Below are positions 6,184-39,179 of a stretch of 64,000 bases of DNA, piece by piece. Numbering within the stretch: the first letter of the stretch is position 1; the number at the start of each line of letters is the position of its first letter. Both the position numbers and the translations under genes were made by a program. Under the pieces are notes generated by a model. That model worked only from the letters and a program-made list of their open reading frames with translations, was not told where the DNA came from and did no database searches. This DNA comes from a virus (lineage: Duplodnaviria; Caudoviricetes): the IMG/VR virus record IMGVR_UViG_2713896750_000003, positions 39,170 through 103,169 of that record; one strand, written 5' to 3'.

Positions 6184-6465
6184 TTACGCTGCCACTCGCG
6201 CATGCTCTGAAACTGTGAAGCTATTAATGCTGTGCTTAAAAAGAACGATATCCTCACCAGAGCTTTTCTCTTTAACGATCACTGAGAACTTATCAAAACC
6301 AACTACAACGCCATAAACGCGACCATCAGTTGTATTGAAGCGCATCTGATGACCTTCTCGCTTGGCTCGAATCAGTCGCATTTCGTGCGCATCAAGCTTG
6401 CGATTCTGCTGCCCTTTTTTCTTGTGTTCGAAAGGTTTGCGATGAGTGTTATTAGAAGTTTGCAT
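6184..6465 (-). CDS. hfq: Hfq-like (Sm/LSm) RNA-binding protein
   Basis: GRVYGVVVGFDKFSVIV (Sm1) and IVLFKHSINSF (Sm2; compare E. coli Hfq FDQFVILL...MVYKHAISTV); CAGGAG RBS before ATG 6465. Confidence 0.75.
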   Translation of the reverse strand: MQTSNNTHRKPFEHKKKGQQNRKLDAHEMRLIRAKREGHQMRFNTTDGRVYGVVVGFDKFSVIVKEKSSGEDIVLFKHSINSFTVSEHARVAA

Positions 6466-6524
6466 CGTTTTCTCCTGTGCGATTAACTTATGAATCAAAT
6501 GATATTTGTTAGTTATAGGTAAGT

Positions 6525-7805: not shown

Positions 7806-7835
7806 AAAAACAAAGCCCCAAAAATGGGGCTTTGT
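7806..7835 (-). terminator. intrinsic terminator ending the tail-fibre/GT/radical SAM transcript
   Basis: ACAAAGCCCCA-AAAA-TGGGGCTTTGT hairpin with a T-run on the minus strand. Confidence 0.8.
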
Positions 7836-7847
7836 GATTAATTAGGC

Positions 7848-8006
7848 TTATTTTTCGCATCCTGGTCGATTAAGATCCGCCATACCCGGCTGCTCTATCG
7901 TGTGACAAGGAATGCCATCATAAGTGTTTAACTTATCCCCTTTTACTGCACAGCCTGACATAAACATTGTCGCGGCGATAACAGTGATAGTTAGTAACTT
8001 TTTCAT
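7848..8006 (-). CDS. small lipoprotein (possible Cor-like superinfection exclusion)
   Basis: MKKLLTITVIAATMFMSG-C signal II/lipobox, 52 aa, two further Cys; GAGGAG RBS. Confidence 0.75.
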   Translation of the reverse strand: MKKLLTITVIAATMFMSGCAVKGDKLNTYDGIPCHTIEQPGMADLNRPGCEK

Positions 8007-8097
8007 TGTTTTCTCCTCGTTGTTGTCAATGTGAGATAAATTTAAAATCTGATTACTGGACTTAAAAGCTCGCTCCTTGGCTGCGTTCACTAACTTA

Positions 8098-9024
8098 TTA
8101 AGTCGATAGCGACTTCGCTCTCCTCATGAACAAATCAAACATCTCTTTGTTCTTTTCAGTTTCGATACTGACCCAGCTATCCCCTAATCGCGCTTGAATC
8201 GCATCACAATGCGTCCAAAAGCTTTCAGTGTGCATTTGTGACGCAATAAGAGAGAGGCGGGCTACATCGTTCATCCAGGGCTTGGCTTGTCCGTGAAAGT
8301 GCTGAATAACGGCCTCTCCCATTGCCATGTTTGCCTCAAGTCTCTGATTCAGAGTCATCCATTGGCAATATGACTGATCAACCATGTAATTAAAGGTGTC
8401 GGGCAACAGCGTAATCTGACCGTCAAACACATGATTGATGTAATCTTGATCGGTTAGAACAAAATTCATGCTGTCCGCGAGGGCGTCATGATTCGGTAGC
8501 TCAGAAATCTTGGCCATGTCAAAGACCATCACACCTGAGTTCACATAATTGATAGGGTCGCTGCACAAATCACTTCTGCGTTCGAATTCATCATTGAGAT
8601 GAGGGGGAAGTGGCTTGCCCGGCGGCCACCGTCTAGCAGGTATATCTGGCGCTGCAGCCACGAGTTTACCCTTAAGATCAAAATTAAGTAGCTCGGCAGG
8701 GTCTTTGTTAACGATGGTGTCGACATCAAAATACACCACTCTGTCGTACTTGCCGATAAAGTGATGTAAAGCGAATATTTTCAGACTCATGCCATAGAAA
8801 AAAGAGTCTGGGAAATGCGTGTTGTTTTCTCTTTGAGTTCTGTCTGTTAAAAGAATCTCTGTAATGCTTGGGTACTCTTGCTTCAGTTCGGCGATCAGAC
8901 TTTCATCATCTACAAACCAGTAAAAGTCTACCTCATTAGTGCCTTTAGCTTCCCAAGAACTCATAAAAATATGGCCGAGCGGTACGTGTTGTTCGTTCGT
9001 ACAGATATACACTGCCGTTTTCAT
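8098..9024 (-). CDS. glycosyltransferase family 8
   Basis: RVVYFDVDTIV (DxD), YVNSGVMVFD, DQDYIN, HFHGQAKPW are canonical GT8 motifs. Confidence 0.9.
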   Translation of the reverse strand: MKTAVYICTNEQHVPLGHIFMSSWEAKGTNEVDFYWFVDDESLIAELKQEYPSITEILLTDRTQRENNTHFPDSFFYGMSLKIFALHHFIGKYDRVVYFDVDTIVNKDPAELLNFDLKGKLVAAAPDIPARRWPPGKPLPPHLNDEFERRSDLCSDPINYVNSGVMVFDMAKISELPNHDALADSMNFVLTDQDYINHVFDGQITLLPDTFNYMVDQSYCQWMTLNQRLEANMAMGEAVIQHFHGQAKPWMNDVARLSLIASQMHTESFWTHCDAIQARLGDSWVSIETEKNKEMFDLFMRRAKSLST

Positions 9025-9032
9025 GATATCTC

Positions 9033-10193
9033 CTATTCAGTGTTTCTAGTTGGTATCAAGCTGTCGGTGAAAAGACGAAGTGTGTTTCTGGCCTGTGGAG
9101 TGATGGCATTAAACCTTCTTTCTTTCGCCTGAAAGTCGCCCCAAATCCGACCGTCAAATGGCTTAGAGAACTCATCAGTAATGCGGTCTGTCAACTTCCT
9201 GAAAGATTGGACGAGAACTTCCGACCAGGAGCTAGTGTCCGTATTGAGCATCTTTTTTAGTATCTTTTCGCGATAGACGACCGGCACATTGCACACTTGG
9301 TACTCCACAGGAAAAGAAACGTCGCCATGGTTTAGCCCGTCTAACCTTACCAAGCTGTCATTCAAAAACTGGTAAAACTCGGGCATGCTCGCGATGGTCA
9401 AGTTGGTGAGCGTCTGATTAACTCTAACTTCGGCATGTGGTATTTCAGAAGCAAGACGATTGTAATTTGCCACAATTCGCTTCGTATTACTTAACTCCCT
9501 TTGATGCTCATTCACTTCAGGCGTCCCATCTAAAGACAGCATATATTCCAAATTAGGGAACGCTCTTAGAATCTCAATAACGTCCTTTCCTCGACTCTTG
9601 AGACTCATCCCATTACTCAAGACTGAAATTCTGATCTTGTCTTTATGTGGGTACAACACGTCTAGAATATCCAGAAAAGAGTCGTCGTTCATTGGCTCCC
9701 CACCATGAAACACATAATGAGTCACCGTAGAGACAACGCTCTTGACGTAATCGATGGTAGCCGCTCTATTATCAATTCTCTTTGCTCCATCGCCAAACAT
9801 CTTCCCATAACTGGTGCTGCAGCCGGACGAGCACATCCGGCATGCGAGCTGGCAAGTATTGTGAGGGCTAAGGTGAAGATATTTGGGATTATTCGGCATG
9901 CGCCCATCAGGAAGGCAATCATCGGGCTTAAAGTCAGGAAATTGAGCCATATAGTGGCCGATCAACTCAATTCCATTTTGTTTAAGTTGACCAGATACAC
10001 ACCGAATGCATCGCTTCGGCACCTCACCCTTTAACCATTTTGCTCTAGCTTCCATCCTATCTAGACTGTTCCAACCCTCATCGAGACTCTGACCATCTGT
10101 ACCTTGGTCGTTACAGCACATTTTGACCGAGCCAAAAGCCCATTGAACGTTGGAGACGAACGGAGCTGGGCATATAAAGTCCACTTTCTTCAT
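9033..10193 (-). CDS. radical SAM enzyme with N-terminal twitch/SPASM-like Cys domain
   Basis: CQLACRMC (CxxxCxxC), GGEP, SNG, SLDG; N-terminal CPAPF...CC...C..C; ATGA overlap with the upstream gene. Confidence 0.88.
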   Translation of the reverse strand: MKKVDFICPAPFVSNVQWAFGSVKMCCNDQGTDGQSLDEGWNSLDRMEARAKWLKGEVPKRCIRCVSGQLKQNGIELIGHYMAQFPDFKPDDCLPDGRMPNNPKYLHLSPHNTCQLACRMCSSGCSTSYGKMFGDGAKRIDNRAATIDYVKSVVSTVTHYVFHGGEPMNDDSFLDILDVLYPHKDKIRISVLSNGMSLKSRGKDVIEILRAFPNLEYMLSLDGTPEVNEHQRELSNTKRIVANYNRLASEIPHAEVRVNQTLTNLTIASMPEFYQFLNDSLVRLDGLNHGDVSFPVEYQVCNVPVVYREKILKKMLNTDTSSWSEVLVQSFRKLTDRITDEFSKPFDGRIWGDFQAKERRFNAITPQARNTLRLFTDSLIPTRNTE

Positions 10194-11440
10194 AATGTAT
10201 CCACGCTGCAAGGTATGATGTTGTTAACGTGAGGAGCAAACATAGGGAAGACCTTCAGCATGTCTCTCCCCTCATGCTCATCTATAGTTCGATCAAGATA
10301 CATTGCCTTGTTCCACTCAGAAGGTGAGAACTTGCCCGCGAAGATCGCTCTCATAGCGGTATCTCTTAGCTCCATATAGTGCTCATTATCTATTTTTACG
10401 TTGCGAAGCTTTTTCAAAACCTCCCTCTTTACATCATCTGGCAGCTGAAATGGCTGATAGTACTTGGGGTTATTGACGACGTTTAAGCTAGGCCAAATGC
10501 CTCTTGGGTGTAAATTTTCGTAGGCCCATTCTAAGTACTCGGCGAAATAAACGGCGGAGTAGTTGCTTAGCGTCGTATGAACCCCCACATAATGCCGCTC
10601 AGGAAGCTTACTCAATGCCTCATCAATGATTTTCATCGTTCTCTTTGTTCTACCTCGAAGCCGGATATAGTCATTGGCCTCTGGAATAGAATCGATCGAA
10701 AAAACGGCATGAACATCCTTAAAATCCTTAAGAACGTCCCAAACATTCCTTCCGTCTGTCATGGTTGAAAACGAACCATTGGAAAGAAAGTTGATTTTGC
10801 ATGTGTCTTTGATCGGCATTAGGGCATCTATAATGGCTGGAAAGTTTTTAGCCTGAATCGGGTCACCGCCGTGCAGCACCACTTCTCGCAACGTCTCATA
10901 GTTGCTTGTAATGATGCGCAAGTCTTCTTCGTGATCGGTCTCCGCAACAAACGTCTTTCGATCAAAAGGAGGGAGAATACCAGGATCATTTGTTAGCCCG
11001 ATTCGCTCAGTAATGCTTAATTTGGTCGAGGAGATCTGTGGCGTACACATCCTACATGCCATGTTGCATTTGTTGCTTACACCAAGCGCTAGTTGGGTCA
11101 AAGGCACTCCACTCATTGAGCCATCTTCGTTGTACAGATGCTTGTACTTCAAGAAGTTCTCAACAAAGAAGGGTCTGTCCTCCAACAGGTAAAACTTAGA
11201 GTGCGACGTTGGCGAGTTTAGACATGTCTTACAACCCTCAGGTAACGCATCGTAATTATGCTCCCATAATGCCTTTCTCGTTTGCTTGGCTACATCACCA
11301 TTCCAGTATTCGTCAAACGGCATTTTTCTTGTTTCGCCCCACATCTCACAACATGGCGAAGTTCTCTGCGAGATTTTAAAAAGGCCAATAAATGGAGCAA
11401 GACACATAGGCAATTTCTCTTTAGGCTCAGACAATTTCAT
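10190..11440 (-). CDS. radical SAM enzyme with N-terminal twitch/SPASM-like Cys domain
   Basis: CNMACRMC, GGDP, SNG, SIDS; N-terminal CLAPF...PCC...GCKTC. Confidence 0.88.
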   Translation of the reverse strand: MKLSEPKEKLPMCLAPFIGLFKISQRTSPCCEMWGETRKMPFDEYWNGDVAKQTRKALWEHNYDALPEGCKTCLNSPTSHSKFYLLEDRPFFVENFLKYKHLYNEDGSMSGVPLTQLALGVSNKCNMACRMCTPQISSTKLSITERIGLTNDPGILPPFDRKTFVAETDHEEDLRIITSNYETLREVVLHGGDPIQAKNFPAIIDALMPIKDTCKINFLSNGSFSTMTDGRNVWDVLKDFKDVHAVFSIDSIPEANDYIRLRGRTKRTMKIIDEALSKLPERHYVGVHTTLSNYSAVYFAEYLEWAYENLHPRGIWPSLNVVNNPKYYQPFQLPDDVKREVLKKLRNVKIDNEHYMELRDTAMRAIFAGKFSPSEWNKAMYLDRTIDEHEGRDMLKVFPMFAPHVNNIIPCSVDTL

Positions 11441-12791
11441 TTAACCAAGCCTCCTCGCAGTTTTTAGCGTACTCATCAACGTCCAATCCTCGATATTCAA
11501 AAGTGTCACCATAGGCTTCTGAAAGCGTCTGAACACATTCAAAAATGTCATTTGGATCTACCTTGATATGAGGGCAGGGAAAGTCCTTCGACCAAGGCGC
11601 GTTGCCGTTAACAACACAAGGAATGTGAACACTCGCTTCAAGAATTGCATAGGGCATTATTTCAATATCGCTCAGGTGTAAAAGGACGCGATGTTGACGA
11701 ATAATGCCGGGTAGGAAATCGTTAGGTACGTTTGTGAGCTGACGATAACCCTGAACGCCAGCCTCATGAGCCATTTCTTTTAGCGTTCGCCCGTCTCGCC
11801 CCAAATCTTGTCCGCAAACTACGGTCACAGGAAGACCGGTTATCGCCAAAATCTCAAACATTAGATCGAAATTTTTTCGCTCGTAGTTTGAGCCAATAAT
11901 AAGTACCCCTTTTGTCCCATTTGTCGTCCTATAGACCACTCTCGGCTCATAAAAGGGTTCGGGCAGAAGCTTGACATTTGCCTCTGGAATTAGAGATTCC
12001 AGTTGCGACTTTACGCCGATGGTTTGGGTTCCGATTTCGAACTTTATATCTTTGAGTAGTCGCAAATAATCGATGACCAAGTCACTTGAGAAATCAGTGA
12101 AGTTAGAGTCAGGGCTCATGATGTCACCAATATGCGTGTATGCGATTCTGGGGATGCCAAGAGCGTCAAACTCATCATTCATCGAATCAAGAGCTAAAGT
12201 CGATGCGTAGCTGTGCGAGACGACTAGAGAAGGGGTGAAATCTCTTAGATATTGCGCAAGACCCTGCTCAAATGTTCTAGATCGAACTTCCTTCTCAAAC
12301 TCAAAAGAATGAACAGGAAGTTCTTTGCTGTTCTCGGCAAACATTGGCATAGAGAAAAGGCTGACATGGCTAAGATCGATTCCATTAGGGAATGCCACAT
12401 CTTCCCCGTCAATATCGGTTACATCGACAATAACATCTAACATTAAGGCGTTTTCCGCGCACATCTGTGCAAAATGCTTTATGAATGTGTAAATGCCGGA
12501 CGCATTGCCAATAAAAAAGCTATCGAGGAGAAAAGCAACACGCTTATCCCCCTTCTTAATTGGTACATCTTTAAGAAGAGTATTCACTTTTTTATACCCC
12601 TTTAACGCTTCGCTTTCAGAAATCTGCCAGCTAATATCGTTTAACGTGAAGTGGTACTGACCAACATCATCCACCCCTTCAAAACAAGATTCATCGATTA
12701 CCTGCTTGCTTGATGTATCAAACAAGGAAAGTTTTCTCCTTGCGCAGTAAAGCGCTAGTTCCTGATTGCCAGTTAAGCTCTGTTTTTGCAT
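11427..12791 (-). CDS. glycosyltransferase, GT-B fold (GT4-like)
   Basis: ASGIYTF, VVSHS, IGSNYERKNF, and LSDIEIMPYAILEA (E-x7-E signature). Confidence 0.78.
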   Translation of the reverse strand: MQKQSLTGNQELALYCARRKLSLFDTSSKQVIDESCFEGVDDVGQYHFTLNDISWQISESEALKGYKKVNTLLKDVPIKKGDKRVAFLLDSFFIGNASGIYTFIKHFAQMCAENALMLDVIVDVTDIDGEDVAFPNGIDLSHVSLFSMPMFAENSKELPVHSFEFEKEVRSRTFEQGLAQYLRDFTPSLVVSHSYASTLALDSMNDEFDALGIPRIAYTHIGDIMSPDSNFTDFSSDLVIDYLRLLKDIKFEIGTQTIGVKSQLESLIPEANVKLLPEPFYEPRVVYRTTNGTKGVLIIGSNYERKNFDLMFEILAITGLPVTVVCGQDLGRDGRTLKEMAHEAGVQGYRQLTNVPNDFLPGIIRQHRVLLHLSDIEIMPYAILEASVHIPCVVNGNAPWSKDFPCPHIKVDPNDIFECVQTLSEAYGDTFEYRGLDVDEYAKNCEEAWLNEIV

Positions 12792-13354
12792 ACAATTGTC
12801 ACCGAACTGCTGTAGACGTTTGTTGTGGACGTAATGCCGTTTGAGTTGGAGAACCCTAAACTGGTGTAGTCATACCTTCCCAAAATGGTGTAACAGGTAT
12901 GAGCGTGAGAGATCCTCACCTGAAAATATTGAAATGAGGCGTTTCTGATGATGTTCCCATACTCATCTTTTGCACCGCCCGACCAGTATCCGCTGATTTT
13001 TACTTCATAACCGTTCCATCGAAATACGGCCCAGTCACCTTCAACTGTCCCCGTACCTCCCCAGCCTCCAAATGCTCGTGTGTTTGGTGCTCGCCATCCA
13101 GACACAATGGCGATTGATGTCCGCGTCTCTTTAAAGGCAATGGCATACTGATCGAACTTTGGATTGTTGAAATGAGAGAGCGACAGATTGCCGCTCGTAG
13201 GGATATCGCTGCCATTGGATTGCTTGGCGTATCGAGGCACCCCCTGATGTGGGTCAATGACACTGGTTTTTGGTCTCAGCTCGGAAAGGGACAGACTACT
13301 GCTGTCCCCAGAGCCGAAAAACAAAGATCGAATTGACGAGAAAGATAGAGCCAT
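12773..13354 (-). CDS. putative tail-fibre tip adhesin/accessory protein
   Basis: TAATG coupling to the tail fibre; N-terminal LSFSSIR..FFG...LSLSE...IPTSGNLSLSHF motif of fibre-docking adhesins; Gly/aromatic-rich C-terminus. Confidence 0.55.
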   Translation of the reverse strand: MALSFSSIRSLFFGSGDSSSLSLSELRPKTSVIDPHQGVPRYAKQSNGSDIPTSGNLSLSHFNNPKFDQYAIAFKETRTSIAIVSGWRAPNTRAFGGWGGTGTVEGDWAVFRWNGYEVKISGYWSGGAKDEYGNIIRNASFQYFQVRISHAHTCYTILGRYDYTSLGFSNSNGITSTTNVYSSSVTIVCKNRA

Positions 13355-16300
13355 TACATTCTACCTCCTTCCAAAGCATCAACTCGATCCGACAACTCCT
13401 TAATAGCCTCTACTAAAAGACCAACGGTGTTACCGTAAGCCACGGAAAGTAGACCATCGTCGCCATGTCTCTTAACCGCCTCAGGGAGAACTCTCTCAAG
13501 CTCTTGAGCGATTAGGCCAGTTTCAACAAACTCTCTGTAATCCGAGGCGCTCTTATCAAGCTTGTTAGCTTTTATATACGTGTAGCCGCTCAACGACTTC
13601 ACCTTATTAAGAGCATCTGAGATGACCTTGATCTCTCTTTTAAGACGGCGGTCAGAAAGACCAGAGATGTCACCACTTGCCGAGATGTTACCGCCCGCTG
13701 TTATGTTGTAACTAGATACAATTGAGCCTGTCGATTGCAGGGTATTCACATGCACATCGGACAGACGCTTGTCTTGAGTCCAACCGCTTGGGCTAGCCTG
13801 AGCCGGAATGATTCTCCAGTCCGTGTACATGTTGCTCTGATTGATTCTTTCTATGGTGTAGTAGAGACCGGTGCCGGACACCGCATACACCTCAAATGAA
13901 TGGCCGCCATACACACGATCAGATGAGTTGTACATTGTTCTCACATGGTAAAAGCCTGGTCCGCCATAAGAGTTCCCCACTAACTGAGTTATCTCGCTCT
14001 GCCCATGACTGTTTGTGATCAAGAACTTAGCGTATGTATGTTTACCACCGGTATAGTCGCCGATCGTGATGATGCAAGCACCATGATCTCCACCATTGGT
14101 GTCAGCGATCTTGTACCAGCCAGTAGAAGGAACATTAAAGTAACGTCTAGGCTCTACCTGAGTGAAGTTAGAACTGTCCTTACCATCAAGCTTGTCAGAG
14201 TTGCTCACAGAAACAGAAAGTGTTCTGTTTGATGAGCCATCGATGGATACCGAGCCGCTCGCGTCGCCGCTTAACGATATCGTTCTTGCCGACGCCCACT
14301 TACTTGCACTAGATGCGTTACCGGATAGACTTCCAGAAAACGCCGGAGCGGTAACCGTGTGAGCAAACACAGCCGTACCGTTCTCTCGAATAGTGAAGTC
14401 CGCAGCACTAGAGCCGTTATAACGGAATGCGAGATCGCCGTTCTGGTGATCAAGCTGCCAATAGTTGTCATTGTAAGTACTGTCCATCAGATTCAATTGA
14501 ACATTGGTGTGTCTGATGGTTAACTGGCCGTTAATTGTCGATGAGGAATCCGAGCGGACAAACTGGCTCGCTTGTAGACCATCAAGTTTATCAGCATCAA
14601 GACCACTTCCTGAACCATCGTTTCCAGCATGCCAAATATTGTGGCCGCGATAGGTAATTGAGTTGGAATTAAAGCCTAACAACGTGGTAGCGTTGCCGCC
14701 GGTCATATAACGGAAGTAATAACCTGAGGCATCCCCGTCCGCGTCGTTGTTATGAGTGAAATAGATGCTACTGTCATCAACATGAACCGAAACATTATCG
14801 TCTTGACCCGTCTGCGATGAAGAGTTTCGTTGCAGTCGGAAAGGCGTACTTCCTTCATTGGTGTTGACGTTCAACTCAGACGTGTTTAGGGCTCCAGTCA
14901 CAGTACCGCCAGAAGATCGCACAAATCGAGCGTCCGCTTCAGATTCGGTATAGTAACGACCGTCATGAGTGTGTGAGTCATTAGCTACACTGACGCTCAT
15001 AGAGACGTTCTCAGAGCCATCCCACGATACAGAGCCGCTCGCGTCTCCTGTCAGAGTTAATGTGCGAGCATTTGTCCATTTATCAGCTATTGGATGGTAG
15101 TTATCCGTAAACAGTCTCTCCCAAGCAAGCGTCCCCACTCGGTGATGAATTGAGCCATGAGAGTTAAAGGACAGTTGATGCGTGTACGTAGAGCCAGAGT
15201 GCGCATTAAAGGTGAAAAGTGCATTCGCATTATTCACCCCGCCTTCAGGCTTGTTGCTTGTTTCCGAATTGTACGTTGTGTAACTGAAACCTCCCTCTTC
15301 CGAGAACAGGCGACTGTTTAGATCTATAGTGCTACGAACGCCCTTCATCATCACGGAGGTTTCGTCGGTAAACACAAGCTTGTTGCCACCCAGAGACAGA
15401 TCTCCTGACAAAGCATCTCCAGATTTTTTCAGGTATCTGTCGTCATGTGTGTGACTGTCGTTGTTTACCGATGCGCTTAGAACAACATCAGACGATCCGT
15501 CAATCGAAACAGAGCCCGTTAGATCACCCGATAGAGTTATCGTTCTCGCTACAGTCCACTTGTCGGCGTTTGGATGGTAGACGTCATTAAATAACTTATG
15601 TGAGGTGCTGTCATTAACAACCCAAACAGGGTTCGATGAAGATGCGAGAGAAAGTCCATCTCGACCAATCGAACCAAAGTAAGCATGCCCATTGTGCAGT
15701 TGAACAAGCGGCTTACTGTCTGTCGCACCAATTGCCCCAGATAGAACGTTGTCAGTGTGAGAGCTGGTTTTACTTAGTGCTCCAACATCACTCGCAGTTG
15801 GCTTGTTATTTGTACTGTAAAGATATTCCCAATCGCTCCATTCATCCGAGTATCTAGTTCGGAACGCAAATCGGCCGGAGCTCGATGACGTGCCATAGGG
15901 AATGACGAACTGCGTTAGGTTGCCTCTGTTATAGGAGAAGTTCTGAATGTAGCCATATCCAGTCTTATTGTCTGGACGATTGGCTGAATCCCCTCTAAAC
16001 AATCTCGCATAAATGCCGGGCTCGTCGATTGCATCAAAGTCAACCGTCAAAGAGCTGCCTGCGTTACCTACAGCAATGTAAGGAATCGACTTGATTAGAC
16101 CAGTATTGTCAAAAGTTACCCTGTCATCAATTTGACTCTGTAAGGATGTCTCCATAGAGTCAACGTCAGATTTTTTGTAGTAGCGACTATCGGCAAACGA
16201 TGCATAATTGCCGCTGTGCATGACCGAGTGCTTGGATGTGCCATCAAAGTACTCAAAAGCCCCTTGGTGATCGAACTGCCAATACTTTCCGCTGTTTGTT

Positions 16301-18984
16301 GACTCAAAGCGCAACTCATTACCAGCAGAGCTAGATGTCGAGCCAACATACTTCAGAAGCCAAGCGTATGTTTGGTTACCAAAGTAGATATAGGAATCTT
16401 GGCCGCCTAATCTATCGCTTAGGCCATCTTCTAGGCCACCATCAATTCTTAAAACTTCGCCGATAGCGTTGAGCTTCAGCTTTTCACTCAATGAACCGCC
16501 TTCCAGAGACAAATACTGGCTGTCGTGAGTGTGAGAATCGTTATTTACAGATACAGAAATTGAGGCATTGGCTGAGCCATCCCACGAAACGGAGCCAGTG
16601 ACATCCCCCGTCAGTGTCAATGTTCTCGCTGTTGTCCACTTGTCTGCATTAGGGTGATAACCATCATGGAAGACCTTTTGTCCCATGAAGTTAAACTCAC
16701 CATTAGTTCTAAGAGTAAGAACCTCTTTTCGAACGCCATCAGACGGCGTGTAGCCTTCAAAGACGATTCCCCCATCAACCTGACCATTCGCGCCGTTAGC
16801 ATCAATCATTCGGAAAATGCGAGCGTCATAGTAGTTAGAACCAGGGAAGTAATCTCCTTGACTGATAATGTCTAATCCCTCTCCCACCTTAAAGCCAGCA
16901 GAGCCTGATGTGATCTTGCCACTTACGGTCAGGTTGCCGCTCATTGTGTCAGAGACGTCAGATCGCAAGAACTGAGTTGAATCTAGACCGTCCAACTTGT
17001 CTGAATCCGCCGCTTTCTCTGTCTTGCCCAGTTTTGACGCGTCAAGAGCAGAGTACGCGCCATTAACCGCGTTGCGCGTTGCTAGATTGGTGCCAGATGA
17101 GGTATAGATGTCAGATGCAGACCAGTTGGGAACATTGTTAAGGCCAATGTCGCTTTTACTAAGGACAACGTTGCCAATCTTGCCGTTTACGCTTGCTACC
17201 TTGTCGGTGTTGTCAACCTTGTACCAAACATCGCTATCCATGTCCCAATAGAGATCGTCACCAGCATCAACAGTAAGCGTCCCCTGAGGTCCGCTCATAG
17301 TCCCGCCTACCGTAACGCGATAGTAGTCGGGCATTTCAGGATCGCTAGGTACAGGGAAGTTACCAGAAGACGCATCCCACTTGCCTTTAAATTGAACCGA
17401 TCTAGTTGCAATTGAACTGGCTTGAGTTGCAGCCTGCTCTGCTCGCTCGGCAGCGCTTTCAGCTATAGATGCAGATGAGGCAGAGCTATCTCGATATGAC
17501 TTAGCTGTATTCTCAGATGCCTTGGATGCAGTTTCTGATGCCTTTGCTGCAATCTCTGAGTTCTTGGCTGCTGTTTCTGATGCCTTAGCTGCAACCTCCG
17601 ATGCCTTAGCCGCAACTTGAGAGGCTTCGGCGGCATCTTCCGATGCCTTAGCTGCAACTTTTGACGCTTCACTGGATGCAGCAGAGCTTGCCGATGACTC
17701 AGCAGAAGCCGCAGCCTCATCTTTTGAATCAGAAGCAGATGAAGCAAAAGATGCCGCTTCATCACGGCTAACCCCGGCATTGGTTTCTGAGGTTTTAGCG
17801 GCAGAGGCTGATGCGTCTGAAGCCTGACGAGAGTTTTCGCTGGCCATTGCAGAGTTTGCAGCCGCGTTTTTACTAGAAATAGCCGAAGCTGCACTATCAG
17901 AAGCAGATGAGGCGTGTGCTGCGGACGCCGTCTCGGAGTCATTTGCGGCTGCCGCACTATTCGCAGCATCCAGCTTGCTCTGATTTGCCGAGTTAGCAGC
18001 GTTTTCAGCCGCTACCTTATTGGCGTTAGACGCAGCTTCAGACGCAGCTGCCGCAATAGCGGATGAATCGGACGCCTGACGAGAAGTCTCGCTCTCAGAA
18101 GCGGAATCCGCCGCCGACCCTGCGGCTGCAGCGGCATTTAGTTCATGTGTTTTAGCATTGTCTTCTGATTGCTTGGCGGCGACCTGACTTGCAGATGCGG
18201 AGTTTCTACTTTCAAGAGCAAACGCTGCATCGTTCGCCGCCTTTATTGCGTGATGTTTCGCAGAGAACTTTCCGCTCTCGACCTCTACATTCTCGCCCTG
18301 CTCGGCCCACTGTTTAGCCTTATGCTCGCTCGCTAGACTCGCATTTTCTGAGGACTTTGCATTAGTTTCGGAGGTTTTCGCTTTGTTTTCTGAGCTCTTA
18401 GCGGCAACGGCGCTAGCTTCAGAAGCTTGGCGAGACAATTCAGAATCATTTGCGGCATCTAAAGCGCTTAGTTCAGAGGCCTTGGCATTCTGCTCTGAAT
18501 CTCTTGCAGCAGATGCAGCTGCCTGTGACTCTTGGTTAGAGACTTCACTTTCATTCGCACTAGCTGCCGAGCTGTTCTTGTTCGCCAGCGACTGCGCTTC
18601 GTGATTAGATGCATTTATTTCTGCCTGTTTTGCAGCGCCTTCCGAAGCACTAGCCGCAGAAACTTTTTCATCTAAAGTAGCCTCGATTGAATTTGAGTAA
18701 TCCAATGCCGCAGACGCCTTGCTAAGCGCCTCGTTAGCTGTAGGAAGGGCATTCTCTACAGCGGCCACTGCTTGATCCATTCGATATTGAATCTGGGAGG
18801 GTGAATCAACGAGAACCTGATTGCCAGTACTGTCTGACAGGTATCGTTTGCCCTTGTTGTCTGTCGCATCGTCTAATGTTTCGTTAGGTGCGGCCAACCA
18901 CTCTCGTTGCTGGTCAACAAAGGCTTGCCAATTATTGATCACATCGCCAAGCCTTTGATACAAATCAGTCGCAGTATTCGACAT
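13354..18984 (-). CDS. long side tail fibre with Ala/Ser-rich coiled repeats and C-terminal intramolecular chaperone (peptidase S74)
   Basis: (A/S)-rich ASETNAK-type repeats as in lambda Stf; VASVNGKIGNVVL; repeated HPNADKWTTART and DKLDG modules; SDRRLKREI...GLIAQELERVLPEAV...LVEAIKEL. Confidence 0.92.
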   Translation of the reverse strand: MSNTATDLYQRLGDVINNWQAFVDQQREWLAAPNETLDDATDNKGKRYLSDSTGNQVLVDSPSQIQYRMDQAVAAVENALPTANEALSKASAALDYSNSIEATLDEKVSAASASEGAAKQAEINASNHEAQSLANKNSSAASANESEVSNQESQAAASAARDSEQNAKASELSALDAANDSELSRQASEASAVAAKSSENKAKTSETNAKSSENASLASEHKAKQWAEQGENVEVESGKFSAKHHAIKAANDAAFALESRNSASASQVAAKQSEDNAKTHELNAAAAAGSAADSASESETSRQASDSSAIAAAASEAASNANKVAAENAANSANQSKLDAANSAAAANDSETASAAHASSASDSAASAISSKNAAANSAMASENSRQASDASASAAKTSETNAGVSRDEAASFASSASDSKDEAAASAESSASSAASSEASKVAAKASEDAAEASQVAAKASEVAAKASETAAKNSEIAAKASETASKASENTAKSYRDSSASSASIAESAAERAEQAATQASSIATRSVQFKGKWDASSGNFPVPSDPEMPDYYRVTVGGTMSGPQGTLTVDAGDDLYWDMDSDVWYKVDNTDKVASVNGKIGNVVLSKSDIGLNNVPNWSASDIYTSSGTNLATRNAVNGAYSALDASKLGKTEKAADSDKLDGLDSTQFLRSDVSDTMSGNLTVSGKITSGSAGFKVGEGLDIISQGDYFPGSNYYDARIFRMIDANGANGQVDGGIVFEGYTPSDGVRKEVLTLRTNGEFNFMGQKVFHDGYHPNADKWTTARTLTLTGDVTGSVSWDGSANASISVSVNNDSHTHDSQYLSLEGGSLSEKLKLNAIGEVLRIDGGLEDGLSDRLGGQDSYIYFGNQTYAWLLKYVGSTSSSAGNELRFESTNSGKYWQFDHQGAFEYFDGTSKHSVMHSGNYASFADSRYYKKSDVDSMETSLQSQIDDRVTFDNTGLIKSIPYIAVGNAGSSLTVDFDAIDEPGIYARLFRGDSANRPDNKTGYGYIQNFSYNRGNLTQFVIPYGTSSSSGRFAFRTRYSDEWSDWEYLYSTNNKPTASDVGALSKTSSHTDNVLSGAIGATDSKPLVQLHNGHAYFGSIGRDGLSLASSSNPVWVVNDSTSHKLFNDVYHPNADKWTVARTITLSGDLTGSVSIDGSSDVVLSASVNNDSHTHDDRYLKKSGDALSGDLSLGGNKLVFTDETSVMMKGVRSTIDLNSRLFSEEGGFSYTTYNSETSNKPEGGVNNANALFTFNAHSGSTYTHQLSFNSHGSIHHRVGTLAWERLFTDNYHPIADKWTNARTLTLTGDASGSVSWDGSENVSMSVSVANDSHTHDGRYYTESEADARFVRSSGGTVTGALNTSELNVNTNEGSTPFRLQRNSSSQTGQDDNVSVHVDDSSIYFTHNNDADGDASGYYFRYMTGGNATTLLGFNSNSITYRGHNIWHAGNDGSGSGLDADKLDGLQASQFVRSDSSSTINGQLTIRHTNVQLNLMDSTYNDNYWQLDHQNGDLAFRYNGSSAADFTIRENGTAVFAHTVTAPAFSGSLSGNASSASKWASARTISLSGDASGSVSIDGSSNRTLSVSVSNSDKLDGKDSSNFTQVEPRRYFNVPSTGWYKIADTNGGDHGACIITIGDYTGGKHTYAKFLITNSHGQSEITQLVGNSYGGPGFYHVRTMYNSSDRVYGGHSFEVYAVSGTGLYYTIERINQSNMYTDWRIIPAQASPSGWTQDKRLSDVHVNTLQSTGSIVSSYNITAGGNISASGDISGLSDRRLKREIKVISDALNKVKSLSGYTYIKANKLDKSASDYREFVETGLIAQELERVLPEAVKRHGDDGLLSVAYGNTVGLLVEAIKELSDRVDALEGGRM

Positions 18985-19036
18985 ATTTCAGTACCTCTTA
19001 ACGTTAAGTGAGCTCCATTATAGGAAATAAAATAAC

Positions 19037-19058
19037 ATTAAGTAAGTACTTACTTAAT
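19037..19058. promoter_or_regulatory. perfect 22-bp palindrome ATTAAGTAAGTACTTACTTAAT, with a minus-strand TATAAT at 19017-19022 upstream of the tail fibre gene
   Basis: Direct reading; member of a dispersed family of about 13 copies. Confidence 0.75.
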
Positions 19059-19063
19059 TTAAG

Positions 19064-19477
19064 CTAATCAGAAAACCTTGTTCTGATCTCGTCTCGTTTG
19101 GCTCTAATCAGCGACTCTTCCGGAAGGAGCTTTTCCAACTCTAAAAGAAGCTCGTGGTTTGTTTTCATTAACTCCCAATCCAAATCACTGTAAATCAGGC
19201 TGTTATAGTTGACATGTATCACCGGCTTGATCTCTGCCAACTGATTCACCCAATCCGGGGCCTCAACTTCATCTTTATGAACATAAAGGAATTGAACCTC
19301 TATATCGCTAACACTATTGCAGAGGCCCTCAGGGTCAGCGACTACGCCAATATCCTGAACAATATTGCCATCAGTCTGCGCCAGAGACGCCACTGTGGAC
19401 GCCCCTGATTTTCTCTTGGATGAGATAACGTATACTAATCCGCTTGGGAATGGGTTATTAAATATCAATGCGCTCAT
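19064..19477 (-). CDS. hypothetical protein (possible tail fibre assembly factor)
   Basis: TAATG coupling to the J-like gene; C-terminal IRAKRDEIRTR. Confidence 0.65.
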   Translation of the reverse strand: MSALIFNNPFPSGLVYVISSKRKSGASTVASLAQTDGNIVQDIGVVADPEGLCNSVSDIEVQFLYVHKDEVEAPDWVNQLAEIKPVIHVNYNSLIYSDLDWELMKTNHELLLELEKLLPEESLIRAKRDEIRTRFSD

Positions 19478-37559: not shown

Positions 37560-39179
37560 TTATTCTTGGTCAGTATCTCGACCGTTCTCTTTGTCCTCAG
37601 ATTCAGCCTGTTCGATTTTCGCATTCGAAACAGATTCTTCAGACGCCTTGTTGATGCCGAATGTCTTACCGATCTGATCGGTAAGGTCGTCGGTCATCTG
37701 TTCAATCGAATCAGTAAGCTCTTTTCTGTCTTTATCTGAGATAAATGGGTATAGCTTGTCTAACACCTGCTTAAGCTGATAACGCTTAATCTCGATAGGC
37801 GTAGTAAGAGCTTCTAATCTCGATGAAATATCTAACTCGTCATGCAAGCCGCGTGTATCAAAGTCCGTAGGCCAAGCAATTAGCGTCTTTCGACCACTCT
37901 CGTTTTTTGGCGGCTCATAGTCTTTGACTCCGTGATACCGCATGACCAAATCGACCAGGTTATACTCGACCTGTTCTAATCCTTTAGATTTGTTAACTAG
38001 AAGGGAGTTGACTCGCTCAAAGTCATAGGCTTTTGCTACGCCTGATGAGTTATCAATACCCTGAGCATTGTCCTGCTTAGTTCGCTCGCCATTCACACCA
38101 ACGACTACGTATATTTCGTTAATGATCTGTCGGATTGAGGTGATAATCAGCTCGGCTTGCTTTGGGTCAGGCGATAAAAAGAATGGCTGACCGCCCTCAC
38201 CATCAAAGGTGAAGATTCGCTTGGTGCCCGCCTCGATAACCTTTCTATGGCCGTCCTCACCGGGCATTAACCCCTGAGCTGGAATTGCTAACTGACTAAA
38301 TGTCTGATCTTGAATTATTGCGTCCAAGTTAGAAAGATAGTTGGCGCAAGTTCGATCCAAGTAGGCGACATCTCCAATCATGGACGGAGAGTGATATAGC
38401 TCCTCAGACTCCATATGATCTACAGGAAACACTGGAACCACTCCAAGGCCGTGCTCTCCCTCTTCCACAAAAGCAAAGCGAATCTTCTCGTTTTTCTTGC
38501 GTTCAGGGTTATCTTCCTTGAATAAATGCCAAGTGTTACGCGTCCACAGTCGATAGCGATAAAACTGTCTGTTACTTGAGTTACTTAAAGGATTTTCATC
38601 ATCTCTAAACACTTCCCGAATCAGAATCCAGTTCAGGTTCTCATCTTCATCGAATGACATATCCAGAACATTTTGAGGGATCACGGAGTATGCGTAGATT
38701 TGAGGTTTAGCCTCGGCTTTACTTTCTCCAGAGCCACGGTTGATAGCGTCGACAACCACCCACACTCGTCCAAGAATTGAGCTTTGCTTTGACAAAAATC
38801 GCATGAATGACTCAATATTCTTGCCCCCTCTCGTGGCACAGTCCCAGAAGTCAACAATCTCCGTCGGGGCGTCTTTTTCGTTTCTGCGAATCTTCCCTTT
38901 GAAAACATACTTATTAACCAAGTCAACAACTTCTCGTGAATGGTTAAACCGGTAAGCTCTCTTAACTCGATCCTTGAACTCTTTGTCGCCCTCTTTGAGA
39001 TATTTGAAGATGTGCTTGTCAAACCAAGCTCGGCCGCCTGTATAGGTTTCAAGCAGAAACTCCCAATGATCCACCATTAGATCATAGGTAGGATGTCTTC
39101 GACCTAGAAGAAGGCCGATCTGCTCTGCTGTGGCCGTTTTATAACTCAAGAATTCACTCCCAATATTTTTTATGAGCAT
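37560..39179 (-). CDS. portal protein
   Basis: 539 aa after the terminase; HP.Y...W...Y.GG, HGLGVVP, SGVAKAYDF. Confidence 0.87.
   Translation of the reverse strand: MLIKNIGSEFLSYKTATAEQIGLLLGRRHPTYDLMVDHWEFLLETYTGGRAWFDKHIFKYLKEGDKEFKDRVKRAYRFNHSREVVDLVNKYVFKGKIRRNEKDAPTEIVDFWDCATRGGKNIESFMRFLSKQSSILGRVWVVVDAINRGSGESKAEAKPQIYAYSVIPQNVLDMSFDEDENLNWILIREVFRDDENPLSNSSNRQFYRYRLWTRNTWHLFKEDNPERKKNEKIRFAFVEEGEHGLGVVPVFPVDHMESEELYHSPSMIGDVAYLDRTCANYLSNLDAIIQDQTFSQLAIPAQGLMPGEDGHRKVIEAGTKRIFTFDGEGGQPFFLSPDPKQAELIITSIRQIINEIYVVVGVNGERTKQDNAQGIDNSSGVAKAYDFERVNSLLVNKSKGLEQVEYNLVDLVMRYHGVKDYEPPKNESGRKTLIAWPTDFDTRGLHDELDISSRLEALTTPIEIKRYQLKQVLDKLYPFISDKDRKELTDSIEQMTDDLTDQIGKTFGINKASEESVSNAKIEQAESEDKENGRDTDQE

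Follow-up and report, generated by a model that had tools for sequence, protein, structure and literature searches.

The locus described here lies in a 64,000-nucleotide stretch of DNA, hereafter the window, which covers positions 39,170 to 103,169 of the virus record IMGVR_UViG_2713896750_000003 (Duplodnaviria; Caudoviricetes) in IMG/VR. A single minus-strand run, from 18984 to 7848, comprises in order a tail fibre gene, a gene for a small protein of no recognised family (orf192), a gene for a glycosyltransferase of the GT-B fold (orf453), genes for two radical S-adenosylmethionine (SAM) enzymes (rSAM-A and rSAM-B), a gene for a glycosyltransferase of family GT8 and an open reading frame (ORF) for a small lipoprotein (Table 1). 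The four enzymes are a candidate module for glycosylating a phage protein and tailoring the product by radical chemistry, and the same five protein families (orf192, GT-B, rSAM-A, rSAM-B and GT8) are found together, at a distance from tail genes, in large Vibrio phages.

The cassette forms one tightly coupled unit with the fibre gene. The original prediction, made from the sequence alone, gave ORF coordinates and overlapping or abutting junctions that are all correct, and no intergenic gap among the enzyme genes is greater than 8 nt. The boundaries that it proposed can also be read in the sequence: the perfect palindrome TTAAGTAAGTACTTACTTAA occupies 19038-19057, a TATAAT hexamer follows 15 nt on (19022-19017), the fibre ATG lies 32 nt beyond TATAAT, and the unit ends at an intrinsic terminator. 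In a consensus scan, no promoter-like site is found before orf192 or orf453; the 12 same-strand promoter-like or terminator-like matches all lie within genes or past the terminator, and the scan returns fewer sites in total than it does in shuffled sequence. Pfam and NCBIfam scans together with hydropathy detect in the unit no transmembrane segment, no signal peptide in the enzymes, and no flippase, polymerase or nucleotide-sugar synthesis gene. The Kyte-Doolittle maxima of the enzymes (19 residues) are 0.74-0.92, with a higher value of 1.81 in orf453 for a stretch that forms a helix and a strand within a Rossmann domain of its AlphaFold2 (AF2) model, and the four enzymes are free of transmembrane segments, as was proposed originally.

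Table 1. Features of the fibre-cassette unit and of the loci compared with it. Positions refer to the window unless another sequence is named.
Feature	Position	Strand	Description
Unit start	19017-19057	-	Perfect 20-bp palindrome TTAAGTAAGTACTTACTTAA and TATAAT
Fibre	13354-18984	-	1876 aa
orf192	12773-13354	-	193 aa; start overlaps fibre stop by 1 nt
orf453	11427-12791	-	454 aa; 19-nt overlap with orf192
rSAM-A	10190-11440	-	416 aa; 14-nt overlap with orf453
rSAM-B	9033-10211 (TTG) or 9033-10193 (ATG)	-	392 aa (TTG) or 386 aa (ATG); ATG form overlaps rSAM-A by 4 nt
GT8	8098-9024	-	308 aa; 8-nt gap to rSAM-B
Lipoprotein ORF	7848-8090; likely start ATG 8006 (7848-8006)	-	GAGGAG ribosome site; 52 aa
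Intrinsic terminator	7810-7835	-	11-pair stem (6 GC pairs), 4-nt loop, T run
Palindrome-motif sites, window	19038 (fibre unit), 27218 and 31824 (tail operons), 41162 (packaging/head operon), 39182 (weaker copy), 46575/46597, 51822, 7325 and 6534 (half sites)		Built on TTAAGTAAGTACTTACTTAA
Palindrome-motif sites, outside window	Genome C1 7398, 14427, 16187, 34216, 36229		Built on TTAAGTAAGTACTTACTTAA
Vibrio phage K566, plus-strand operon		+	0302 475-aa lipoprotein, 0303 radical SAM, 0304 GT8, 0305 radical SAM, 0306 radical SAM, 0307 GT-B
Vibrio phage K566, minus-strand operon		-	0311 orf192-like, 0310, 0309 GT8, 0308 radical SAM
Accessory flagellar set	G183:C69:1-39800 (L112 and L114); G357:C2 (L113 and L115)		FliR, FlhB, FlhA, FlgF, FlgG, FlgA, FlgH, FlgI, FliE, FliF, FliH, FliI, FlgD, FlgE, FliM/N, FliP, sigma factor

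The palindrome at the head of the unit belongs to a family of sites. Its 12-mer core, with at most one mismatch, gives 18 hits at about 13 intergenic sites, compared with 0.58 in shuffles. Full or near-full palindromes lie ahead of the fibre unit, two tail operons and the packaging/head operon, and there is one weaker copy; half sites beside AT-rich boxes are found ahead of the replication-side operons, two of them just past the cassette terminator. Judged from this distribution, the family is probably the operator/promoter element of the phage's main regulator. Because full copies recur only before structural operons, the fibre-cassette unit is suggested to share a regulatory class with the virion genes, and expression alongside those genes, as proposed originally, is plausible on this evidence.

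Both radical SAM proteins match PF04055 in Pfam, and both score above the cut-off of 170 bits for NF033640 ('twitch domain-containing radical SAM'), an uncharacterised family, with 177.7 bits for rSAM-A and 174.4 bits for rSAM-B (177.5 and 174.1 bits when the search was repeated with the genome). None of 14 control genomes has a member of this family above the cut-off. The two proteins are paralogues with 25% identity, and their catalytic motifs are intact: rSAM-A has cysteines at N-terminal positions 13, 30, 70 and 73, the CX3CX2C motif CNMACRMC at 125-132 and GGDP at 191, and rSAM-B has the same N-terminal cysteine pattern, CQLACRMC at 120-127 and GGEP at 170. Alignment A4, of 11 sequences, shows no variation in the four N-terminal cysteines or in the CX3CX2C and GG motifs, and relatives of these enzymes match the SPASM model PF13186 at residues ~5-86. 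Because of the NF033640 membership and the invariant N-terminal cysteines, the auxiliary Fe-S twitch domain is placed at the N-terminus of both enzymes, which is unusual, and is predicted to bind a cluster there.

BtrN and NeoN, with which the two enzymes were originally compared, have, as generally described, a single auxiliary 4Fe-4S cluster, housed in a twitch domain, in addition to the radical SAM core, and act in a carbohydrate setting. The comparison holds for the twitch domain itself and not for its position, which is C-terminal in BtrN and NeoN. Neither protein is matched in a PDB sequence search at E <= 0.1, in which the nearest solved sequence is 8vpo (E 1.4e-4), and past NF033640 the next NCBIfam matches of both enzymes are peptide maturases, with E values from 1e-7 to 1e-3. 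A defence-system reading was dropped, since PADLOC gave only weak viperin-model matches of the kind typical of any radical SAM protein.

The first glycosyltransferase, orf453, has no match in Pfam (E <= 0.01) or NCBIfam (E <= 0.1) and does not belong to PF00534 or PF13439 by profile. Its AF2 model, made with ten relatives (pLDDT 78.7, pTM 0.77), has the two Rossmann domains of the GT-B fold and an extra N-terminal domain of ~80 residues that is missing from shorter relatives. Foldseek returns at least 500 matches to the model at E <= 0.001; the top ones (E 1e-13 to 1e-9, TM 0.5-0.66) are MshA (3c4q, E 2e-13), a mannosyltransferase, BshA and lipopolysaccharide (LPS) GT4 enzymes. An EX7E motif in the C-terminal domain is typical of retaining GT4 enzymes, and in orf453 this is EIMPYAILE at 377-385, in which E377 and E385 are nearly invariant (alignment A1). 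Because matches to PF00534 and PF13439 occur only in relatives (P0016 for the former and, below threshold, K566_0307 for the latter), orf453 is filed as GT4-like by its modelled fold and not as a profile member. The alignment of its family found no confirmed relative in viral, metagenome or genome contigs.

The second glycosyltransferase is a clear member of GT8, matching PF01501 with an E value of 1.7e-23 (83.9 bits against a gathering threshold of 24.3) over profile positions 43-251 of 253. Proteins of this family are recognised by a DxD motif for metal and nucleotide-sugar binding and by a C-terminal HxxGxxKPW motif; here these are DVD at 100-102 and HFHGQAKPW at 242-250. Its PDB sequence matches are WbbM, 3tzt, LgtC and, weakly, 5gvv (a GT8 enzyme, E 0.015). 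The gene identities of the original prediction are upheld for the enzymes and the lipoprotein: a GT4-like enzyme by fold, two twitch radical SAM enzymes by NF033640, a GT8 enzyme by PF01501 and a lipoprotein by its lipobox.

The remaining protein between fibre and enzymes, orf192, is an orphan. Coil predominates in its N-terminal ~65 residues, where the motifs GVPRY (38) and IPTSG (51) are conserved, and its C-terminal part is modelled by AF2 as a beta-sandwich ending in IVCKNRA (pLDDT 74.5). Pfam, PHROGs and NCBIfam assign it to no family, and none of 10 members has a Pfam family. A fold search with the model gives no significant match (best Foldseek E values of 0.048 in PDB and 0.077 in BFVD), and the best Z score in a wide structure comparison (VIA), 6.2, is to a de novo Ig protein. 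The description 'adhesin-like' in the original prediction is not disproved by these results, but nothing in them supports it. A HMMER pass over 1.84 billion representatives gave 11 hits, which comprise its own cluster, nine credible relatives of 180-211 aa and a 1166-aa repeat protein (P0038); the last was judged a spurious low-complexity match and was excluded from the alignment (A2). Searches of viral contigs with alignment A3 and with P0034, and of metagenome contigs with P0034, found no confirmed relatives. When the family profile is compared with K566_0311 by hhalign, the two align over their full length with a probability of 85.7% (E 5e-6), compared with 0.06-0.6% for three control proteins, and K566_0311 is a probable homologue on this basis.

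The phage to which that protein belongs carries one of the cassettes closest to the present one. rSAM-A matches 40 phage records, all of them Vibrio phages, and orf453 matches 41, of which 40 are Vibrio phages and one is a Synechococcus phage. The closest cassettes are those of the KVP40-like Vibrio phages K566 and K567, where the genes form two divergent operons (Table 1). All five families occur together there: the orf192-like protein 0311, the GT-B protein 0307, 0303 for rSAM-A, 0306 for rSAM-B and 0304/0309 for GT8. The identities to the K566 proteins are 43.5% for rSAM-A (0303), 33.7% for rSAM-B (0306), 26.8% for orf453 (0307) and 25% for GT8 (with both 0309 and 0304). The counterparts in KVP40 are KVP40.0260, 0261, 0272 and 0274, the last with 24.9% identity to orf453; the annotation of the genes in the KVP40-like cassettes does not go beyond 'radical SAM domain' or 'hypothetical'. 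On comparison, K566_0310 proved to be related to neither orf192 nor the GT-B proteins.

The two kinds of cassette share the radical SAM enzymes with N-terminal twitch domains, the GT-B and GT8 proteins and the probable orf192 homologue. The KVP40-like version is larger, with its two divergent operons, four radical SAM genes, two GT8 genes, a 475-aa lipoprotein and an extra 359-aa protein, whereas the locus described here has five genes, a minimal set that is joined to the fibre gene of a siphovirus-type phage-plasmid. That a non-enzyme partner, the orf192 family, persists suggests a protein with a dedicated role as substrate or scaffold. In the 28-kb K566 locus the sequence TATAAATA, which we take to be the T4 late-promoter consensus, occurs once on both strands together, ~45 nt upstream of 0311.

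Relatives outside the named phages are few. A word-indexed search found five of rSAM-A and nine of orf453. Proteins like orf192, the GT-B enzyme and rSAM-A appear to share contigs of 73298 and 7280 bp, and orf192-like and GT-B proteins appear to share contigs of 10234 and 4958 bp, the co-occurrence being judged in both cases from identical lengths of the longest contig. Near-DNA searches for the cassette in phages and in plasmids found nothing, nor did a protein search for rSAM-A in plasmids. In genome contigs, a search with rSAM-A returned a single contig of a metagenome-assembled genome (L018), which resembles a set of viral radical SAM arrays. Such arrays of radical SAM genes are present on this contig and on marine viral contigs of 28-177 kb in IMG/VR (L002, L004, L005, L007, L008, L011 and L016). 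Among 33 of their ORFs that were scanned, 18 match PF04055 and/or PF13186, some with an N-terminal SPASM-type domain, and the partner genes encode PhyH and TauD dioxygenases, an FkbM methyltransferase, an aldo-keto reductase, a nitroreductase, an aminotransferase and a B12-binding protein. The arrays have 23-27% identity to rSAM-A, and in contrast to the present cassette the ORFs scanned include no GT8.

Bacterial relatives were sought in 401 genomes from one family, that of the genome bearing locus L045, which is titled Vibrio coralliilyticus. Six of the genomes have a match to NF033640 at E <= 1e-20, none above the cut-off. Two of the 401 (G183 and G357) contain a conserved triplet made up of an unknown gene, a gene for a radical SAM protein whose twitch domain is N-terminal (121 and 116 bits for NF033640; 24% identity to rSAM-A and 32% to KVP40_0272) and a GT8 gene. 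The unknown gene was considered as a member of the orf453 family, which the comparison did not bear out. The triplet is flanked by tetratricopeptide repeat (TPR) proteins and directly adjoins a complete accessory flagellar gene set (Table 1). The same cluster includes a GT2/alpha-amylase fusion, further TPR proteins and an EptA-like transferase, and an RHS toxin locus adjoins it. Flagellar loci with glycosyltransferases and TPR partners are the usual setting of cytoplasmic protein O-glycosylation; the link from the triplet to protein glycosylation would be one of guilt by association in two genomes, and the literature searched yielded no paper that connects radical SAM enzymes with the glycosylation of flagellin. 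In two places, KVP40 (134159-136044, L017) and one Vibrionaceae chromosome (L111:7719-10305, G357:C1), a radical SAM gene of the N-terminal twitch type adjoins a NAPRTase-family gene, which may be a coincidence or a second functional context.

The fibre itself contains T4 gp36 repeats (PF03903) and, from about residue 1777, a C-terminal S74 intramolecular chaperone domain (PF13884), and it matches phrog_11011 in PHROGs with an E value of 3e-183. It is laid out as an N-terminal coiled coil, gp36/gp37-like repeats with three DSHTHD motifs, a globular tip and the chaperone. Among phage proteins it is closest to the distal subunits of the long tail fibres of KVP40-like Vibrio phages, to which the distal two thirds of the protein are 36-50% identical in a piecewise alignment. 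Both the distal part of the fibre and the cassette are nearest to KVP40-like phages, and here they are joined in one operon.

The Ala/Ser-rich region of the fibre that was described originally is present at residues ~91-560 (29% Ala, 21% Ser). It has autocorrelation peaks at 7, 14, 21, 28 and 35 residues and a 21-nt repeat in the DNA, and it contains four prolines in 470 residues. Because of the heptad periodicity and the small number of prolines, the region is identified as a heptad coiled-coil shaft and not a disordered serine-rich repeat (SRR), and the original analogy with streptococcal serine-rich-repeat adhesins does not survive this result. The glycosylation of those adhesins is similar in its pairing of GT4 and GT8 enzymes, its cytoplasmic setting and its fibre-like surface protein, but the present locus differs in the coiled-coil region and in its two radical SAM enzymes and is not a member of that system; no GtfB-like or SecA2/Y2 genes turned up in ORF scans of the genome.

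The genome that carries the cassette is a single record of 103,169 bp, with a CheckV completeness estimate of 94% and a G+C content of ~45%. Its portal shares 55% identity with the portals of Salmonella phage SSU5 and of Klebsiella/Escherichia phage-plasmids, and Pfam-type ORF scans identify two ParB-family genes, ParA and a Rep3 initiator. Further genes include an integrase-family gene, PhoH, DnaB helicase, primase, DNA polymerase III alpha, RecA, gp32, AAA_5/CbbQ- and CobT_C-like proteins, NrdD with its activase, ThyA and DHFR. Because it combines an SSU5-type portal with partition, replication and nucleotide genes, the genome is classified by gene content as an SSU5-like phage-plasmid (virion genes and a partition/replication set in ~100 kb), with plasmid maintenance itself predicted only. 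The host is probably Vibrio-like and marine, to judge by the Vibrio-phage relatives, the G+C content and a 103,249-bp seawater contig with 98.5% identity (over 20 kb) to this genome; the cassette is retained at 95-99% identity in contigs from two other runs in two studies. The seawater run (X1) is labelled RNA-Seq and yields the complete 103,249-bp genome as a single contig at a flat depth of 36, which is probably virion or plasmid DNA carried over into the library. Runs X6 and X15 contained no reads.

The position of the cassette can be compared directly with SSU5, where J and the fibre gene are followed by genes for a 'tail fiber adhesin', an outer-membrane protein, a membrane protein and the Cor exclusion lipoprotein, then by lysis genes and, later, helicase and primase. 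The backbone and the position are the same (J, fibre, small protein, small envelope proteins), but the SSU5 slot (SSU5_022 to SSU5_025) has no enzymes, whereas here the four enzymes occupy the interval between the small post-fibre protein and the small lipoprotein. The SSU5 'tail fiber adhesin' is not related to orf192 (hhalign probability 0.6%). The lipoprotein precursor of 52 aa has a signal peptide ending at the lipobox MSGC and a mature form of 34 aa with two further cysteines. Its matches to NCBIfam lipoprotein models are sub-threshold only, it has no phage relatives at E < 0.6, and it gives no alignment with SSU5 Cor and does not qualify as a Cor or Llp protein. From its position and lipobox, it may be a separate receptor-blocking or exclusion factor, analogous to Cor or Llp.

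Taken together, we consider it possible, with a probability of roughly 40%, that the cassette is a cytoplasmic module of the lytic cycle that attaches sugars to a phage protein, the fibre or orf192, and tailors it by radical chemistry. GT4 and GT8 are both families of retaining transferases; in such a pathway, the GT4-like GT-B enzyme and the GT8 enzyme would draw on host nucleotide sugars to attach hexose-type sugars to a protein encoded by the phage, and the two radical SAM paralogues would then tailor the glycan or the acceptor residue, with oxidation, epimerisation, dehydration or formation of a C-C or C-X link as candidate chemistries. The likeliest acceptors would be the fibre or the small orf192-family protein that always accompanies the enzymes. 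A phage-protein acceptor is favoured by the coupling to the fibre gene, the shared regulatory site, the soluble enzymes with no lipid-carrier or export partner and the conserved orf192 partner, and also by the late-promoter motif in K566 and the flagellar, and hence protein-export, setting of the bacterial relatives. A narrower version of this reading is doubtful at present: that the module carries out a radical-SAM-dependent modification of the phage virion, placing a non-standard glycan or a glycan-linked crosslink on the fibre or on an orf192-family fibre-associated protein, that it is mobile between SSU5-like phage-plasmids and KVP40-like myophages, and that the enzyme pair also serves a Vibrionaceae accessory flagellar system.

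Several observations weigh against modification of a phage protein. The original prediction named homologous cassettes with no link to structural genes as grounds for its refutation, and this has come about in part: the KVP40-like cassettes lie among non-structural genes, ~15-20 kb from the fibre genes of related phages. The coiled-coil character of the Ala/Ser region argues against the fibre as an acceptor of the SRR type. The link between orf192 and K566_0311 comes from hhalign alone: BLASTP gives an E value of 0.45, a shuffle test gives z 2.9 with 5 of 300 shuffles scoring as high, and a HMMER profile search of the K566 record for the orf192 family found nothing. The flat whole-genome contig of run X1 is uninformative about transcription, and the timing of expression is proposed from sequence motifs only. 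The flagellar context is found in just 2 of the 401 genomes, in which the radical SAM proteins fall under the family cut-off, and no flagellin was found on the two contigs. The fibre, another phage protein and the host envelope are all still candidate acceptors.

The envelope is the subject of the main rival explanation, which we regard as somewhat unlikely. In this scheme, the GT4-like and GT8 enzymes would act at the inner membrane face on lipid-linked intermediates of LPS core, O-unit or capsule, and the radical SAM enzymes would tailor the sugar; with the lipoprotein, the phage would mask its own receptor, resulting in superinfection exclusion or in protection of progeny from cell debris. 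In SSU5, genes for an outer-membrane protein, a membrane protein and the Cor exclusion lipoprotein follow those for fibre and adhesin, and by position alone the cassette could be a receptor-masking exclusion moron. A lipoprotein gene closes the present operon and opens the K566 plus-strand operon, and the K566 cassette is flanked by PagP-, LpxC- (lipid A) and NadV-like genes, so that its lipid A neighbours and its lipoprotein point towards the envelope. The nearest relatives of the GT8 and GT4-like enzymes by sequence or fold include LPS enzymes: the best NCBIfam match of GT8, far below cut-off, is an LPS 3-alpha-galactosyltransferase model, WbbM and LgtC are among its PDB matches, and the GT-B fold of orf453 is shared with LPS enzymes. 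P22-like phages, moreover, have O-antigen modification genes that adjoin the tailspike gene. In PMC7029224, O-chain modification is proposed for the GT8 genes of pelagimyophage host-recognition clusters. Envelope remodelling accounts poorly, however, for the translational coupling to the fibre gene, the palindrome common to head and tail operons and the lack of a promoter-like site before orf192 or orf453. The unit contains no flippase, Gtr-type membrane partner or transmembrane protein, the conserved soluble orf192 partner is left unexplained, and the bacterial relatives found sit in a flagellar cluster and not in an LPS or capsule locus. We know of no radical SAM step in the assembly of LPS core or O-antigen.

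It is unlikely that the genes encode a small-molecule or nucleotide-sugar pathway, in which the GT4-like enzyme would glycosylate a small acceptor, like MshA, BshA and the aminoglycoside GT4 enzymes, and the radical SAM enzymes would act in the manner of BtrN and NeoN, twitch-type enzymes that work on aminoglycoside intermediates, to give a metabolite useful in infection. MshA and BshA, the top fold matches of orf453, have small-molecule acceptors, and the distant viral radical SAM arrays carry aminotransferase, dioxygenase, methyltransferase and reductase genes. PMC12801897 lists, for a cyanophage, genes of aminocyclitol type next to a radical SAM gene. In ORF scans, however, neither the unit nor the rest of the 103-kb genome has a scaffold-forming or aminotransferase gene, and the fibre coupling and the orf192 partner would both be without explanation.

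A pathway resembling those for RiPPs (peptides made by the ribosome and modified after translation) is less probable still. Here the radical SAM enzymes would crosslink or epimerise the 34-aa mature lipoprotein or the N-terminal motifs of orf192, and the transferases would then glycosylate the product. The peptide maturases among the next NCBIfam matches are in keeping with this scheme, as are the small cysteine-bearing ORF after the enzymes and the unstructured, motif-rich N-terminus of orf192; 8vpo is cited in a paper whose subject is radical SAM enzymes that act as cyclopropyl synthases for RiPPs. The maturase matches are, however, generic for the SPASM/twitch group and far under their cut-offs, the K566 and KVP40 cassettes conserve no gene for a small peptide, and no RiPP recognition element was found. 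DNA hypermodification, in which a modified base would be glycosylated and then radical-tailored, was offered originally as an alternative. Phage glycosyltransferases often act on DNA, but this reading is highly improbable, given that ThyA scores over the thymidylate synthase equivalog cut-off (348 against 327 bits) and is paired with DHFR, that 106 scanned ORFs (18 + 37 + 51) include no hydroxymethylase, base kinase or aminotransferase, and that the T4 DNA glucosyltransferases belong to families other than GT8 and GT4.

Some other features of the genome may be recorded here. Between the J-like tip protein and the fibre unit lies orf136 (window 19064-19477), whose start overlaps the J stop and which has no family in Pfam, PHROGs, NCBIfam or PADLOC. 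A small ORF at window 6184-6498 has an Hfq-like match slightly under the Pfam threshold (25.9 against 27 bits). The gene for DNA polymerase III alpha is apparently split (L020:9370-13462; genome C1 28370-32462) into an ORF with PHP, NTPase and finger domains and another with HHH_6 and a UDG-like part, with an HNH/NUMOD4 homing-endonuclease gene between them. The sole match of an 855-aa ORF (L019:11841-14405, genome C1) is to a sub-threshold intein splicing domain (31.6 bits, cut-off 35.8). The genome also encodes a Tad3-like protein of the Thoeris inhibitor family (L020:6723-7292), a Fic/DOC protein (L020:1073-2428) and a Gp49/HTH pair of the HigB/HigA toxin-antitoxin type (L019:17518-18170).

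Phage glycosyltransferases are known for the modification of DNA and O-antigen and, in mycobacteriophages, for virion glycosylation. In the last case, Freeman et al. (2023, Cell Host Microbe) are said to have described cytoplasmic glycosyltransferases, encoded by the phages, that modify virion proteins; that system reportedly has no radical SAM enzymes, its acceptors are the C-termini of capsid and tail-tube proteins, and its hosts are Actinobacteria. Phage glycosyltransferase modules are already on record, as are cassettes with GT8, radical SAM and fibre genes in marine T4-like phages. These include, according to PMC7029224, the host-recognition cluster of pelagimyophages and cyanomyophages, T4-like lytic phages in which the regions are ~35-45 kb long and for which the authors suggest O-chain modification. 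The original remark that no described system with this architecture was known stands for the literature searched, in which no description of the module or of its family was found. Four things are new relative to that literature: a compact module of five families has radical SAM paralogues with N-terminal twitch domains together with an orphan protein dedicated to it, it is fused to a phage-plasmid's fibre gene, KVP40-like phages share it, and it can be linked to an accessory flagellar cluster.

Radical SAM partners in marine phage modules have been noticed before and never explained. The minimal form of the module, in which a fibre gene is joined to just five others on a probably inducible phage-plasmid, makes several questions accessible to experiment: the role of the NF033640 family, the presence of radical-tailored glycans on phage receptor-binding proteins, and any effect of such decoration on host range, stability or immune recognition. 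If the target proves to be the host envelope, the cassette would represent a new enzymatic route to superinfection exclusion. If it is instead the virion, the cassette would be the first instance in which radical SAM enzymes modify a phage virion post-translationally, and NF033640 would gain a function.

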